DNA of 32,000 nt from Pseudomonas aeruginosa (lineage in GTDB: Bacteria > Pseudomonadota > Gammaproteobacteria > Pseudomonadales > Pseudomonadaceae). The notes under the pieces are model-generated. The model searched no databases, was not told where the DNA came from, and saw only the letters and a list, made by a program, of their open reading frames with translations. A program made the position numbers and the translations under genes. The stretch's first letter is position 1. Each line of letters starts with the position of its first letter. Shown here piece by piece: positions 27,277-32,000 of this stretch. The DNA is taken from the NCBI RefSeq assembly GCF_001457615.1, contig NZ_LN831024.1, forward strand, positions 870,001-902,000, in the 5' to 3' direction.

Positions 27277-27663
27277 TCAAGTGTCGATGAAGAAGTAATC
27301 ACCTTCCTCGCGCCTTTCTTTATACGCTCGGGCTCTCCCAAGGTTGATACGGTTTGAGGCGTTGGGGTTGTGATTGGAATTGCTGACGGCGTGGTGGATA
27401 TGGACCGGCTCGTCGGCGTTGCTGATCGCTCCGCTAAGCGTCACTCCCAGGCTGGCGGCATAGGCCCGGCGTGCCGCAACGATCTCGCTCTCGAGCATGC
27501 CTGCTTTCCCTGCTGCGGCAACGACGGCAAGTTCGCATAGGCGGCCAGCCTTCCTCGGGGAAACCCTCAGGTCGGCGCCTGCGGACCACAGGGCAAGCAG
27601 CGCTTTGGATGGAGCACAGCCATTTCTGCTGCGCTCTTCGATTGTCTCCAGGAGCGGACTCAT
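27277..27663 (-). CDS. Orphan hypothetical protein, 128 aa, with atypical composition
   Basis: ATG preceded by AGAGG (4-nt spacer). A sigma70-like TTGCTT-N16-GATACT lies on the minus strand (27725-27720 / 27703-27698). By my hand count GC3 is only about two thirds, clearly lower than the neighbouring genes by eye. I recognise no family motif. Confidence 0.45.
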   Translation of the reverse strand: MSPLLETIEERSRNGCAPSKALLALWSAGADLRVSPRKAGRLCELAVVAAAGKAGMLESEIVAARRAYAASLGVTLSGAISNADEPVHIHHAVSNSNHNPNASNRINLGRARAYKERREEGDYFFIDT

Positions 27664-27816: not shown

Positions 27817-29061
27817 CTACGGCTTTTCGGTTCCCGCGTCGAAATACGATCCGCCGTTGCTCGGCAGTCCCGTCCACATCTCGTCGAGATTGCGGAAGTT
27901 CCAGGCCTCCGCCGGCTCGAAGCCGACGATTCGGTCGGTCTGTCCGGCCCTACCCAGGTCTATCACCTGCTGCGGGATCGGCACCTTCGAGCGGGCCGAG
28001 AAGAATACCTTGACCCGTGGCGTCAGCAGCGAGCGGCCGTGTTGCTCGAGGACCACGCCGAGGCGCCCGCTTTCCAGCCTGACCAGCGCGCCGACCGGGT
28101 AGATGCCCACTGCCTTGACGAAGGCGCGGAACACCTGCGGGTCGAAGTGCCCGTTCCATTCGGCCATGCGCCGGATCGCCTCGGCGGCGTTCCAGCCCTT
28201 CTTGTAGGGACGGTCGGAGGTGATCGCGTCGTAGACGTCGCACACCGCGCCCATTCGCGCCAGCAGGCTGATCTGCTCCTGCGCCAGGCCGAAGGGGTAG
28301 CCGGTGCCGTCGATGCGCTCGTGGTGGTGCAGGCAGACATCCACCACCAGGGCGCTGACCTGGCGGCAATCGAGCAGCATCCGCGCGCCGTTCTGCGGAT
28401 GCCGGCGAACCAGGCCGAACTCCGGGTCGGTGAGCTTGCCGGGCTTGTTCAGGATCGGATCGGGCACCGCCATCTTGCCGATGTCGTGCAGCAGCCCGGC
28501 CAGCCCCGCCTCGCGTACCAGCGGGTCGGGCAGTTCGAGCTGGCGGGCGAGGGCGATCATCAGCGCACAGACCGCCACCGAATGCATGTAGGTGTATTCA
28601 TCCGAGGTCTTCAGCCGTACCAGGCTGAGCAGCGCGTTGGGATGGCGCAGCACCGAGGCGGAGATTTCGTCCACCAGGTCCGATGCATGCGCGGTATCGA
28701 TGGCCTGGCCCATGCGCGCGTCGCGGAACATGCTGACCACGGCGGCCTTGGCACGGCTGCAGAGCAGGGCGGCGTGGCGGATTTCCTCCTCCAGGGCGAC
28801 CCGCGCCGGCGAAGGGCCGGCCGGCATGGTGACCGGCAGGACCGCAGCGGCCGAGACCGCCGCTTCCTCCGGGAGGTCGAGGCCCTTGCTGGCATCGATC
28901 CAGACTTCCTTCACGGCGCTTTCGCGCAGGCGCTGCAGGTCGGCCTGGCTGTCGAGCAGGAAGCCACCTCTTTTCCAGAACGGGTGGTCCAGCCACGAGC
29001 CGCAAAGGCTCTGGACGAACATACCGAGGCGAAGCTGGGTTACCGGAATGCGTTTCAGCAC
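27817..29061 (-). CDS. HD-GYP domain cyclic-di-GMP phosphodiesterase with an N-terminal DUF3391-like domain (PA4108-like)
   Basis: 414 aa, GTG start. MLKRIPVTQLRLGMFVQSLCGSWLDHPFW is the DUF3391-type N-terminus. The HD motif LLHDIGK and the GYP motif HHERIDGTGYP are present. Confidence 0.93.
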   Translation of the reverse strand: MLKRIPVTQLRLGMFVQSLCGSWLDHPFWKRGGFLLDSQADLQRLRESAVKEVWIDASKGLDLPEEAAVSAAAVLPVTMPAGPSPARVALEEEIRHAALLCSRAKAAVVSMFRDARMGQAIDTAHASDLVDEISASVLRHPNALLSLVRLKTSDEYTYMHSVAVCALMIALARQLELPDPLVREAGLAGLLHDIGKMAVPDPILNKPGKLTDPEFGLVRRHPQNGARMLLDCRQVSALVVDVCLHHHERIDGTGYPFGLAQEQISLLARMGAVCDVYDAITSDRPYKKGWNAAEAIRRMAEWNGHFDPQVFRAFVKAVGIYPVGALVRLESGRLGVVLEQHGRSLLTPRVKVFFSARSKVPIPQQVIDLGRAGQTDRIVGFEPAEAWNFRNLDEMWTGLPSNGGSYFDAGTEKP

Positions 29062-29174
29062 GATGGGCTCGACCTCGAGACTGGGCCAGGTGGCTGTCTC
29101 CTAACGGTAGCCGAGATGGGCCGGCGGGAGTGAGAGATGCCCGGCACTTCGTCGGCATGCCCGCGCTCGATTGC

Positions 29175-29252
29175 GTATCGCTTTGTATCCATGCGCGGTT
29201 TCGATACCTCCGGCGTACAAATCCACGTGTCGGGCGATACACCCCCGATACA
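29175..29252. promoter_or_regulatory. Phased GTATC/GATAC pentamer repeats in the HD-GYP / efhP divergent promoter region
   Basis: GTATC occurs at 29175 and 29185 (10-bp spacing). GATAC occurs at 29203, then CGATACA at 29235 and 29246 (11-bp spacing). That is five copies of one pentamer or its complement within 78 bp of GC-rich DNA. Confidence 0.3.
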
Positions 29253-29384
29253 TCTCCCAGGCGAAATGGCCACATCCGAACCGCGGCGCCCGGGACGACC
29301 CCAGAAGGTCCCGCCGCCCGGTTCGTACCGGCGCCCACCAGCGCCGCGCCTGCGGCCCGGCCGCGTTTACTGTGGAGAAGAAGC

Positions 29385-29852
29385 ATGTCCGTTTTCGATT
29401 CGCGTCAAAAGACTTCCGCCAGCCTGCTCGGTGCCGTACTGGTGGGGGGAATGCTGCTCGGCGGTTCGGCGTTCGCCGTCGAGCCGCTGGGCCAGGGGCT
29501 GCAAGTGGCGGCGGCGAGCGCCGGCGAAGGCAAGTGCGGAGAAGGCAAGTGTGGTAGCGGCGGCTCCGCGAAGACCCCGACCAAGGCCGGCGCCGAGGGC
29601 AAGTGCGGGGAGGGCAAGTGCGGCGACGCCTCCTTTGCCCGAACCGACACCGATCACGATGGCAAGGTCTCGCGCGCCGAGTTCCTCGCGGTGGCCAAGG
29701 ACCGTGCCGGTGAGTTCGACAGCATCGATAGCGACCATGACGGCTTCATTTCCGAAGCCGAGGCCTACGAACACCTGCGCAAGACCTACGAGGCCAACGG
29801 CAAGCCGATGCCCGCCGGGCTGTTCAGCAAGCTGGAGCAAGGCCGGCACTGA
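29385..29852 (+). CDS. efhP: EF-hand calcium-binding protein EfhP with a Sec-type signal/anchor and four EGKCG cysteine motifs (candidate MNIO substrate)
   Basis: The ATG at 29385 has GGAGAAG 4 nt upstream; the track ORF from 29130 is over-extended. 155 aa: [34 protein letters not shown] (signal-like). [10 protein letters not shown] spans residues 48-57 and 71-80. Two canonical 12-residue EF loops follow: [12 protein letters not shown] (88-99) and [12 protein letters not shown] (115-126). Confidence 0.93.
29526..29624 (+). repeat. Two tandem doublets of the 15-nt unit encoding EGKCG (4 copies)
   Basis: The units are gaaggcaagtgcgga, gaaggcaagtgtggt (29526-29555), then gagggcaagtgcggg, gagggcaagtgcggc (29595-29624). 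All are in the efhP frame. Confidence 0.9.
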
Positions 29853-29867
29853 GCCTTTCCACACCCT

Positions 29868-29915
29868 GGCGGCGCCCTCTCTTTCCCCTGGGAAAGCGGG
29901 GGCGTCGCCGTTTCC
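29868..29915 (+). terminator. Long imperfect hairpin between efhP and the MNIO gene (candidate attenuator / partial terminator)
   Basis: GGCGGCGCCCTCTCTTTCCC (29868-29887) pairs with GGGAAAGCGGGGGCGTCGCC (29890-29909). The stem has about 17 pairs including 2 G-U, with 1 mismatch. It is followed by GTTTCC and then the MNIO SD GGAG (29916-29919). Confidence 0.4.
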
Positions 29916-29926
29916 GGAGCTATCCC

Positions 29927-30757
29927 ATGACCCTGATCGACAACGCCGCCGGCCTCGGCCTGAGGCGCGGCCTGCTTCCGCAACTGCTGGCGATGGCGCC
30001 CGGCGCGGTGGACTTCCTCGAATGCGCGCCGGACAACTGGATCGGCGTCGGCGGTGCCTTCGGTGCCGACCTGGAGCGCCTGGTGGAGCGCTTTCCACTG
30101 ACCTGCCACGGTCTCTCGCTGTCCCTCGGCGGCTCCACACCGCTGGATGCCGCCTTCATCGAGCAGACCCGACGCTTCCTCGTCCGCCACCGGGTCGCGT
30201 TGTACAGCGAGCACCTCAGTTACTGTTCCGACGATGGCCATCTCTATGATCTGTTGCCGCTGCCGTTCACCGAGGCCGCGGTGCGTCACGTCGCGGCGCG
30301 CATCCGCGAGGCGCAGGAACGCCTGGAGCGGCGCATCGCGGTGGAGAACATTTCCTACTATGCAGCGCCGTACCGGGAGATGAGCGAGATCGAGTTCGTC
30401 AACGCGGTACTCGACGAGGCCGACTGCGACCTGTTGCTGGACGTCAACAACCTGTTCGTCAACGCCTGCAACCACGGCTACGACGCCCTCGACTTCCTCG
30501 CCCGGCTGCCGCCCGGGCGGGTCGCCGTCTACCATGTGGCGGGGCACTACGACGAGGCGCCGGACCTGAAGATCGACACCCATGGTGCCGCCGTGAAGCC
30601 CGGCGTCTGGGCCTTGCTTGGAGCCGCCTATCGTCGCTTCGGCGTGCGCCCGACCCTGCTCGAGCGGGACTTCAACTATCCGCCGCTGGGCGAACTGCTG
30701 CTGGAAGTGGAGCAGATCCGCCAATGGCAACGCGACGAGGGACGCCGTCATGGATGA
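29927..30757 (+). CDS. DUF692 / MNIO (multinuclear non-heme iron oxidase, MbnB/BufB/HvfB-like) enzyme (PA4106-like)
   Basis: 276 aa. Family landmarks by eye: [66 protein letters not shown] (TIM-barrel metal ligands). Confidence 0.93.
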
Positions 30758-31505
30758 GCGCCTGCGCCAACAGCAGTTCAGCCTCGCCCGGCACCTGCGC
30801 GACCCGCTTGGCAATGCGCCGCCGCCGGACATCGAAGAACGTCGCCTGCGGGTCTACCGCGAGCTGTTCTACAACGCCATCGAAGGCCTCCTTGCCAGCG
30901 GCTTCCCGCGCTTGCGCGGGCTGCTTGGCGAGCAGCAGTGGCATGGCCTGGTGCGCGAGTTCTATCGCGAGGAGAGAAGCCATACCCCCCTGTTCACCCG
31001 TATCGCCGGGGTCTTCGTCGACTACCTGCGGCAGCGGGGCGAGTATCGGCCGGCGTGGCAAGCCGAGTTGGCCCACTTCGAATGGAGCGAAACGCGCCTC
31101 TACCTGGCCGAGCCCGACGATCCGCCGTATCGGCGTGAAGGCGACCTGCTCGACGGGGTGCCGCTGCTGTCGAGCCTGGCGCTGCCGCTGGGCTATCGCT
31201 GGCCGGTGCATCGGCTCGAAGAGGACGTCGCGCTCGCCGAAGCGCCTGCGGAACCGACCCTGCTGTTGATGCACCGCGATTCCTCGCATCGCGTGCATAC
31301 CGCGCGCCTGACTCCGCTGGCCTACCGCCTGCTGGAGTCGCTGGCGAGACGGCGCCTGAGAGGGCGCGAGCACCTGGCGGCGCTGGCGCTCGAGGCGCGG
31401 AGTGCGCCCGGAGCGCTCGACGCGGCGGGGCTGGAGTTGCTGGCAGCGTTGCGGACCCAGGGTGTCGTGCTCGGAACCCTGGAACGCGATTGGGCGGGCG
31501 GATGA
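30750..31505 (+). CDS. DUF2063-family partner protein (MbnC/BufC/HvfC-like, putative substrate-recognition subunit) (PA4105-like)
   Basis: Start [19 protein letters not shown] at the ATG at 30750, overlapping the MNIO gene by 8 nt, giving 251 aa. The DUF2063-type N-terminal region is present ([22 protein letters not shown], FxREF..., [10 protein letters not shown]). The C-terminal domain is compatible with an RRE/winged-helix-like fold. Confidence 0.88.
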
Positions 31506-31534
31506 CGACGCAGCCCTTGTGGAGTCGATGCATC

Positions 31535-31690
31535 GGCGGATAGCGCCGTTGGCGCTATCCGCCCTACGTGGTGGGTGGGACGGTCTTGGTGTAGGGCGGA
31601 TAACCGCTTGCGGTTATCCGCCGGGGTGGGTCCGGTGTATCGGCGAATAGCGCCGTTGGCGCTATTCGCCCTACGCGGTGGGTGGGATGG
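31535..31690. repeat. Cluster of three REP elements in alternating orientation, with a flanking ~50-bp direct repeat
   Basis: REP copies lie at 31535-31568 (GGCGGATAGCGCCGTTGGCGCTATCCGCCCTACG), 31591-31622 (inverted: GTAGGGCGGATAACCGCTTGCGGTTATCCGCC) and 31642-31675 (GGCGAATAGCGCCGTTGGCGCTATTCGCCCTACG). The first and third are each followed by GGTGGGTGGGA(C/T)GGT. Confidence 0.75.
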
Positions 31691-31705
31691 TTCTGGCTTG
31701 CTGTG

Positions 31706-31740
31706 AAAAACCCCGGAGGCGATCGCGTTCCGGGGTTTTT
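31706..31740. terminator. Bidirectional rho-independent terminator
   Basis: AAAAACCCCGGA (31706-31717) and TCCGGGGTTTTT (31729-31740) are perfect complements with an 11-nt loop. This gives a GC stem plus a U-tract on both strands, between the convergent DUF2063 and DoxX genes. Confidence 0.65.
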
Positions 31741-31757
31741 CCGTGGCTGGCCGAATC

Positions 31758-32000
31758 CTAGCGGGACAGGCCCAGGCGCCGCCCGAGCCAGTGGTCCAGG
31801 CTCAGCTTCCCCGCCCCCGCCAACAGCAGCGGCAGCAGCGCCGCCAGGTAGATCGCCGGGAGCTTGAAATTGCCGAAGCCGTGGTCGGTGATCGAGTAGC
31901 CGCGGGCCAGTTCCGCCAGGCTCGACCACTCCGCCGGCCAGTGTACGGCGGCGGTCGCCACCAGAGTGACGACGATCAGCACCAGGGCGGTCAGGCGGGT
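31758..32000 (-). CDS. DoxX-family inner-membrane protein, C-terminal part (gene continues past the right edge)
   Basis: The C-terminal ...[34 protein letters not shown] is the typical DoxX ending (GxGxxSLD). The frame stays open upstream of the GTG at 31982 to the window end, so the true start is probably outside the window. Confidence 0.7.

Follow-up and report, generated by a model that had tools for sequence, protein, structure and literature searches.

EGKCG doublets of EfhP, an EF-hand protein from Pseudomonas aeruginosa, as probable core motifs of an HvfA-family precursor domain

Here, we analyzed a stretch of 32,000 nucleotides (nt) from Pseudomonas aeruginosa (RefSeq assembly GCF_001457615.1, contig NZ_LN831024.1, positions 870,001 to 902,000 of the forward strand; in the following "the window"), which harbors efhP (PA4107-like), an open reading frame (ORF) of 155 amino acids (aa) plus stop codon at 29385–29852 on the + strand. 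In P. aeruginosa, EfhP serves as a calcium sensor and is associated with virulence. From N- to C-terminus the protein consists of a signal or anchor segment, a conserved pre-core, a core with four EGKCG pentapeptide units, and two EF-hands. With a probability of about 80%, we consider the EGKCG units to be the core motifs of an HvfA-family ("Buf_EGKCG" or captophorin) precursor domain, which is fused N-terminally to the periplasmic EF-hand domain of EfhP. The motif, its doublet layout, and the operon partners all match curated family models at the sequence level. The motif and its presence in EfhP have been published, and this part of the result is thus correct but not new: the four repeats were noted together with an Fe-sensing hypothesis (mBio 2024; PMC11559002), a class of EGKCG/EF-hand chimeras was described in Microbial Genomics 2025 (PMC12452194), P. 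aeruginosa is listed among the hosts in both chemistry papers (PMC11252979, PMC13097082), and many homologues are already named "HvfA family oxazolone/thioamide-modified RiPP metallophore" in NCBI and UniRef (RiPP, peptide that is synthesized ribosomally and then modified post-translationally). The present analysis adds a quantitative contrast in selection between units and linker, the absence of concerted evolution, and a unit-number polymorphism within the species.

The family assignment is based on three adjacent genes. EfhP matches the NCBIfam model NF050137 (KCGExKCG_twice, HvfA family oxazolone/thioamide-modified RiPP metallophore) with 33 bits at a cut-off of 19.5, and the KCGExKCG doublet, which this family carries at least twice, is present at 29526–29555 and 29595–29624. 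[quoted passage not shown] HvfB matches Pfam MbnB_TglH_ChrH (E = 1e-99) as well as NF003818, "HvfB family MNIO-type RiPP peptide maturase" (411.6 bits, cut-off 360), and its nearest solved structure is the DUF692 protein 3BWW (E = 2e-72). HvfC matches Pfam DUF2063 and NGO1945_C together with the HvfC model NF050145 (251.8 bits, cut-off 142). The cluster also contains a doxX gene (PA4104-like), of which the window holds the 3' part in convergent orientation (31758–32000, − strand, cut by the window end; an ORF fragment positioned via blastn offsets); in loci with the identical allele this is a convergent gene for a 169-aa DoxX protein (PF07681) 3' of hvfC. The locus corresponds to the PA4107-PA4106-PA4105 / PA4104 arrangement of P. 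aeruginosa, and the order efhP, hvfB, hvfC is identical in all P. aeruginosa loci that were fetched. The exact EfhP protein of the window was found in 933 blocks of public assemblies, with the same gene context in all of them. The link between the units and MNIO/DUF2063 genes, which had been drawn in an earlier reading of this DNA from the letters and their translation (hereafter the sequence-only reading), therefore holds, as the units share an operon with an HvfB-family MNIO and its HvfC (DUF2063) partner.

The EGKCG units are arranged as two back-to-back doublets, doublet 1 at 29526–29555 (+ strand; Cys51 and Cys56) and doublet 2 at 29595–29624 (+ strand; Cys74 and Cys79), which are separated by a 13-aa linker (29556–29594, + strand). 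Translation of the ORF from 29385 confirmed this layout as well as the earlier statement that all units encode the same peptide and differ at third positions only. Unit 1 (29526–29540, + strand) reads GAA GGC AAG TGC GGA, unit 2 (29541–29555, + strand) GAA GGC AAG TGT GGT, unit 3 (29595–29609, + strand) GAG GGC AAG TGC GGG, and unit 4 (29610–29624, + strand) GAG GGC AAG TGC GGC; hence, Glu is encoded by gaa/gaa/gag/gag, Cys by tgc/tgt/tgc/tgc, and the last Gly by gga/ggt/ggg/ggc. In an independent repeat search the doublet was recovered as a 36-nt direct repeat (29519–29554 and 29588–29623) with 83% identity and a spacing of 69 nt. On average, any two of the four units differ by 2.17 nt per 15, compared to 2.12 nt expected for independent codon draws with the codon usage of four neighboring genes. 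Thus, the synonymous sites of the units are fully randomized under an identical peptide. The use of each of the four Gly codons once at the last position had been noted in the sequence-only reading. Given the local codon usage, such a pattern has a probability of ~0.035 post hoc, and other alleles and species differ, with GGA GGC / GGG GGC in another P. aeruginosa haplotype and GGC GGC / GGA GGT in P. paraeruginosa. We therefore rejected it as a meaningful signal and regard it as a coincidence of the window allele.

The exact peptide is under strong purifying selection. The EGKCG pentapeptide shows essentially no variation among 120 database homologues and 80 genomic loci and occurs nearly always in doublets, of which there are 1 to 5 per protein with A/G/S/K/T/Q-rich linkers of varying length between them. 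It is unchanged from Pseudomonas to Lysobacterales and is also the motif of Haemophilus HvfA. For eight Pseudomonas genes of 2+2 architecture (two doublets of two units), we determined the proportions of nonsynonymous (pN) and synonymous (pS) differences by the Nei-Gojobori method. The EGKCG units yielded a pN of 0.000 at a pS of 0.554 (pN/pS 0.00), whereas the linker is nearly unconstrained (pN 0.366, pS 0.483, pN/pS 0.76). The EF-hand domain (pN 0.201, pS 0.493, pN/pS 0.41) and the signal segment (pN 0.268, pS 0.516, pN/pS 0.52) were also included. A comparison of dN/dS between the repeats and the linker had been proposed in the sequence-only reading, and the near-neutral value of the linker next to the complete absence of replacements in the units supports its view of selection on the exact peptide. 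The linker residues are polymorphic even within P. aeruginosa (TPTK, TPAK, TSAK, PSAK, APAK, and TSAN).

We also considered concerted evolution of the units. In 81 genes with 390 units, adjacent units within one gene show 1.86 differences per 15 nt and units of different species 1.78; within-gene distances thus equal between-species ones and concerted evolution was rejected. It follows from these distances that the units have not been homogenized, that the repeats are old, and that the peptide alone has been held constant. The doublet is therefore an ancient, peptide-constrained element. Compared to P. paraeruginosa (locus L001, 4139–4237), the synonymous divergence of the window units is 0.67 (8 of 12 sites), in contrast to 0.22 in the rest of efhP (Fisher P = 0.0025). 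The most economical reading of this excess is a turnover or shuffling of units rather than faster point mutation. Window unit 1 is an exact match to unit 3 of the P. paraeruginosa array and window unit 4 to its unit 2, which is compatible with shuffling, although the state space of the units is small.

What these motifs may become can be deduced from homologous systems. In HvfA of nontypeable Haemophilus influenzae, all six Cys of the three doublet motifs lose 4 Da each through the action of HvfB and HvfC; modified HvfA binds Cu(I) tightly, and the authors conclude that about one Cu(I) is bound for every two modifications (PMC11252979). Initially described as oxazolone/thioamide, the modification was later reassigned to 5-thiooxazole by the original authors (bioRxiv 10.64898/2026.06.05.730506), a reassignment that was reached independently in a study that now calls the class captophorins (PMC13097082). 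The 5-thiooxazole conversion, which is marked by the loss of 4 Da and a chromophore at ~302 nm, is thus demonstrated for HvfA, FonA, and gonophorin (PMC11252979, bioRxiv 10.64898/2026.06.05.730506, PMC13097082), and high-affinity binding of Cu(I) for modified homologues (PMC11252979, PMC13097082). In vitro, FonBC modified a two-unit but not a one-unit peptide (PMC13097082), which, by analogy, fits a pair of units as the working unit of EfhP. In the sequence-only reading it was suggested that the Cys pairs chelate copper in methanobactin-type sites. The pairing is supported by the ratio of about one Cu(I) per two modifications in HvfA and by the two-unit requirement of FonBC, whereas the methanobactin chemistry does not stand, since the homologues have been reassigned to 5-thiooxazole.

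EfhP resembles the oxazolin precursor HvfA (hvfABC plus DoxX; PMC11252979) in having doublets with short variable linkers behind an N-terminal segment that in EfhP is a putative secretion signal, in its adjoining HvfB-family MNIO, HvfC RRE partner, and nearby DoxX, and in matching the HvfA-family domain model. In contrast, HvfA stands alone as a peptide of 95 aa, in which three doublets are accompanied by two additional disulfide Cys and EF-hands are absent, whereas in EfhP two doublets are followed by a folded two-EF-hand domain; modification and copper binding have been demonstrated for HvfA and are suggested for EfhP by homology. EfhP belongs to the EGKCG/EF-hand chimera class, for which the accessible parts of PMC12452194 describe a short EGKCG domain that lacks the beta-helix repeats of 17 residues and has a hydrophobic helix before it and two EF-hand_5 domains after it. 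There is no structural difference between EfhP and this class as given there, P. aeruginosa EfhP being the cited example, and these parts present the chimeras without experimental data, unit-number polymorphism, or codon-level analysis. Fontiphorin (FonA/FonBC) and gonophorin (captophorins, PMC13097082) share with EfhP the "Lys-Cys" class of motif, i.e., the 5-mer EGKCG, as well as a gene cluster of the MNIO-PME1 kind, but they are stand-alone repeat peptides of other genera without an EF-hand, and FonBC accepts many substitutions that the natural units of EfhP never show. Methanobactin (MbnA/MbnBC) has in common a distantly related MNIO acting on Cys and two N,S heterocycle-type ligands per Cu(I); it differs in its oxazolone/thioamide products, its short leader-core precursor without signal peptide or repeats, and its role in copper acquisition. 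Consistent with this distance, the window enzyme reaches 34.9 bits in the MbnB model TIGR04159 (cut-off 325) and E = 1e-7 against MbnB in PDB. The bufferins Buf1 (DUF2282) and Buf2 with BufB/BufC possess a closely related MNIO and the same type of partner. They are Sec-exported 5-thiooxazole copper-buffering peptides, whose DUF2282 or Buf_6/12Cys precursors, unlike EfhP, lack the EGKCG motif; the window enzyme stays below the cut-off of the BufB model (257.6 versus 310 bits), and EfhP has no DUF2282 match.

By analogy to HvfA/oxazolin, FonA/fontiphorin, and gonophorin, HvfC would bind the EfhP precursor ahead of Sec export, and HvfB would turn Cys51, Cys56, Cys74, and Cys79 into 5-thiooxazoles by oxidation, with a loss of 4 Da per residue. 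Every doublet would thereby provide two N,S-donor heterocycles and about one high-affinity Cu(I) site. For the window allele, this would amount to four 5-thiooxazoles and two Cu(I) sites on a flexible segment joined to the EF-hand pair in the periplasm. As the EF-hand pair is proposed to remain attached, mature EfhP would contain both Ca2+ and Cu(I) sites.

Several points weigh against the assignment of EfhP to the copper-binding HvfA family. The HvfA equivalog model NF050188 scores only 24.2 bits at a cut-off of 95, and the repeat region (aa 43–80) alone aligns to it; EfhP is thus no oxazolin orthologue. In the searchable literature, neither experimental modification of EfhP by PA4106/PA4105 nor copper binding by EfhP was found. 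Recombinant EfhP has been characterized for Ca2+ binding in a paper that leaves the maturase genes unmentioned (PMC9132961) and in which the terms "copper", "Cu2+", and "truncat" have zero matches. The same laboratory that studies EfhP has proposed Fe sensing via its Cys residues (PMC11559002). The stoichiometry of copper in the homologues is heterogeneous (PMC13097082, PMC11252979), and EGKCG peptides may bind copper stochastically instead of in an ordered manner (PMC13097082). Furthermore, FonBC depends on Cys at position 4 as well as on a small residue at position 5 but tolerates many changes at positions 1–3 (PMC13097082), so that enzyme recognition alone is insufficient to account for the invariance of E, G, and K in nature; that this invariance exceeds the in vitro need of the enzyme points to an extra constraint such as the geometry of a metal site. 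Finally, among the 62 EF-hand fusions with enough flanking DNA, HvfB and HvfC are adjacent in 42, and the remaining 20, mostly from the P. fluorescens group, keep a perfect doublet with no MNIO within 2.5 kb or more (L009, L014–L016, L018–L021, L024–L026, L029–L031, L033, L035, L036, L040, L058, and L062).

A co-variation of unit number and enzymes had been considered in the sequence-only reading, and we observed a median of 5.5 KCG units (range 3–11, n = 42) in fusions with adjacent HvfB/HvfC versus 2.5 (range 2–9, n = 20) in those without a nearby MNIO (Mann-Whitney P = 6e-4, a value that ignores phylogenetic non-independence, the second set being largely from the P. fluorescens group). Half of the latter 20 fusions keep a single perfect doublet. 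In one of them (L030, 3884–4384), the EGKCG/EF-hand gene is located between a pyridine-nucleotide disulfide oxidoreductase gene (Pyr_redox_2) and clpB. Gene order also varies where the enzymes are present: in Pseudomonas karstica (L034, 458–4510) a ferric-reductase-like gene is followed by DoxX, HvfB, HvfC, and, in last position, the EGKCG/EF-hand precursor with three doublets. The precursor is thus not always located 5' of the MNIO gene.

These findings have to be weighed against the alternative that the EGKCG Cys act unmodified, i.e., that their thiols bind or sense a metal (Fe or Fe-S) or form redox-active disulfides, while the MNIO has another substrate. This hypothesis was stated in PMC11559002, and deletion of efhP alters the expression of Fe-uptake genes. 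It would be in line with the homologues that keep a perfect doublet without an adjacent MNIO, such as L030, and with the observation that unmodified HvfA still holds 2–3 Cu(I), albeit weakly (PMC11252979). However, unmodified HvfA fails to compete with bicinchoninic acid for Cu(I) (PMC11252979), and the Cys are converted in every characterized EGKCG system. Motif, enzyme, and partner each score above the cut-offs of the curated HvfA/HvfB/HvfC family models, and the ORF list of the window contains no further small ORF with Cys ahead of hvfB. Moreover, nearly all genomes with such precursors contain an MNIO somewhere; according to Table 3 of PMC12452194, just 67 of the 2583 genomes that carry a Buf_EGKCG gene lack one. 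Altogether, we regard a role of the unmodified Cys as unlikely.

The number of units turned out to be variable within P. aeruginosa. The EfhP proteins of this species in the database have lengths of 127, 132, 145, 150, 155, and 160 aa. Besides the 2+2 architecture (window allele, 933 blocks; P0121, at least 1000 contigs; P0122, 607 contigs), we found 1+2 (P0008; 417 blocks, 325 contigs), a lone doublet (P0017; 26 blocks), 3+2 (P0127; 11 contigs), 1+3 (P0135; 9 contigs), 1+1 (P0015; 9 contigs), 2+1 (P0010; 7 contigs), 2+3 (P0003–P0007 and P0009; one contig each), and a single unit (P0021; 1 contig). In the 1+2 and 2+1 alleles, one doublet is reduced to a single unit; the 2+3 allele carries an exact second copy of unit 3 (GAG GGC AAG TGC GGG twice), and in the 132-aa allele a 69-nt in-frame deletion fuses unit 2 to the end of unit 4. 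These alleles demonstrate that unit number is labile on the timescale of strain divergence, either through replication slippage or through unequal recombination that involves the 15-nt units. The efhP repeats are thus accurately described as an old peptide motif in a young array. The earlier claim of old repeats that do not stem from recent slippage is correct for the window allele and for the selection on the peptide, but it fails within P. aeruginosa, where single 15-nt units and whole doublets have been gained and lost. A free loss or scrambling of the motif next to retained enzymes had been named as an argument against a constrained peptide. Units are indeed lost while hvfB, hvfC, and doxX are intact, as they are at every P. 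aeruginosa locus fetched across the unit-number alleles, but the motif is never scrambled and no zero-unit allele was seen. Since FonBC needs two units, the singletons of the 1+2, 2+1, and 1+1 alleles may stay unmodified, and by this analogy the singleton of the common 1+2 allele is possibly no substrate.

The array does not behave as a simple-sequence contingency locus with phase variation: the alleles with 1–5 units all keep the EF-hand domain in frame. As the units are 15 nt long and the frame is kept, slippage in efhP leads to copy-number variation and not to on/off switching. One further P. aeruginosa allele (P0014, 149 aa) reads AKARARRRGQGKCGD across doublet 2, which resembles an out-of-frame slip that is restored a few codons on; it is present on one contig only, and a sequencing error is possible. 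A prior report of the unit-number polymorphism was not found in a literature search that did not have EfhP as a required term, so that such a report may exist.

Slippage raises the question of whether the synonymous differences between neighboring units are themselves selected, because they break long exact repeats and would stabilize the four-Cys array. A collapsed doublet 1 was seen in a haplotype (L082/L083 type) in which units 1 and 2 share a 14-nt exact repeat, and in the window allele, unit 2 has two additional synonymous changes (TGT GGT), which cut this repeat to 11 nt. Adjacent units are also slightly more different than random pairs (the 1.86 versus 1.78 nt given above). Yet, this trend falls short of significance (permutation test on 198 adjacent pairs; P = 0.075 with all genes and 0.16 with Pseudomonas), the diversity of the window units equals the neutral codon-usage expectation (2.17 versus 2.12), and doublet 2 of the window allele keeps a 14-nt exact repeat. 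We thus have little confidence in such a selection against slippage. That the repeats are merely a slippage-made, low-complexity flexible tether from the membrane or signal segment to the EF-hands, without any sequence-specific role, would agree with the 1 to 5 units inside one species, with the region being predicted as unstructured in EF-hand chimeras (PMC12452194), and with the label "uncharacterized low-complexity protein" given to some homologues by JGI, but it is highly improbable, because a neutral tether predicts replacements as in the linker (pN/pS 0.76) and is already contradicted by a pN of 0 at saturating pS and by a pentapeptide that is invariant from Pseudomonas to Lysobacterales and in Haemophilus HvfA.

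Returning to EfhP as an HvfA-family fusion, the presence of two kinds of metal sites would allow for a bifunctional protein, in which the two Cu(I) sites made of thiooxazoles are functionally coupled to the two Ca2+ sites of the EF-hands and 15-nt slippage tunes the copper capacity between P. aeruginosa lineages. For instance, a Ca2+-opened EF-hand pair could alter how tightly the doublets bind copper or how exposed they are, or Ca2+ signaling could be modulated by the loading with copper. We put this forward as a tentative idea that is doubtful at present. In some Lysobacterales (Dokdonella; L066, 3905–4321; L069, 3959–4351; L071, 3959–4336), the precursor has the permuted order doublet-EF-EF-doublet, the EF-hand pair taking the place of the linker, and in L069 and L071 HvfB and HvfC lie directly 3' of it. 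This permutation suggests that the EF-hand domain is integral to the mature product and no cleaved appendage. A coupling of Ca2+ and Cu(I) would fit this arrangement, as well as the retention of the EF-hand domain beside the core in hundreds of species, but neither is proof of it.

The remaining features of EfhP agree with its description as an EF-hand protein. The paired canonical 12-residue DxDxDG loops comprise Ca2+-binding loop 1 (aa 88–99; 29646–29681, + strand; Pfam EF-hand_1, aa 83–105) and loop 2 (aa 115–126; 29727–29762, + strand; Pfam EF-hand_7, aa 111–139). Pfam EF-hand_1/5/6/7 score above their cut-offs, and the Pfam matches in EfhP are confined to EF-hands. The published PA4107 Ca2+ loops 88–99 and 115–126 fit the 155-aa allele (PMC4053335), and Ca2+ binding by EfhP has been reported (PMC9132961). 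The N-terminal hydrophobic segment (aa 1–31; 29385–29477, + strand) ends with SAFA|VEP and constitutes a Sec signal peptide or a membrane anchor; it was predicted as a transmembrane anchor in PMC4053335, as well as in PMC12452194, and as a signal peptide by SignalP 5 in PMC9132961. F30, A31, L35, and G38 are identical across 19 homologues. A Shine-Dalgarno-like GGAG (29374–29377) is located 7 nt 5' of the efhP ATG. A longer ORF with a GTG start at 29130 was rejected, because orthologues begin with MSVF... and the GGAG fits the ATG at 29385.

Regulation of the operon has been addressed before: BfmR binds the PA4107 promoter fragment from −490 to −131 and directly activates PA4107-4106-4105, which is up-regulated in cystic fibrosis lungs (PMC4148453). 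About 200 nt 5' of efhP, the window contains one match, GATACAAAGC (29180–29189, − strand), to the published BfmR box GATACAnnGC, which is not significant on its own as at least one match occurs in 37 of 100 shuffles. In a scan of 29000–32000, no sigma-70-like promoter was detected, and the sole terminator-like hairpin (29351–29365, just 5' of the ATG) is within chance expectation. Further 5' of efhP, there is an HD-GYP-type gene (DUF3391/HD_5/HD) as well as a gene for a LysR-family regulator, with a small ORF without Pfam match between them (27277–27663, − strand), whose called length is 128 aa in one strain but 73 aa in the others. The gap between hvfC and doxX (31519–31696) contains two copies of an element resembling repetitive extragenic palindromic (REP) sequences, which are 107 nt apart, 85% identical over 71 nt, and have the internal palindrome GGCGGATAGCGCCGTTGGCGCTATCCGCC. 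The copy number of this element varies among P. aeruginosa strains (blastn against other loci), and a 16-nt inverted repeat (31475–31490 and 31722–31737) surrounds the copies.

The MNIO field had already pointed to the link to EfhP, so that the value of this analysis lies in its confirmation and in quantitative evolutionary support. If the four Cys are indeed converted into copper-binding thiooxazoles, what efhP mutants show with respect to calcium and iron may have to be re-read as copper handling, recombinant EfhP that was produced without PA4106/PA4105 may misrepresent the native protein, and strains with 1, 2, 3, 4, or 5 units may differ in their copper capacity. EfhP has been reported to be encoded by only 64% of P. 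aeruginosa genomes when "full-length" homologues are counted (PMC9132961); one might speculate that the common 150-aa (1+2) allele and other length variants partly explain the "missing" fraction.

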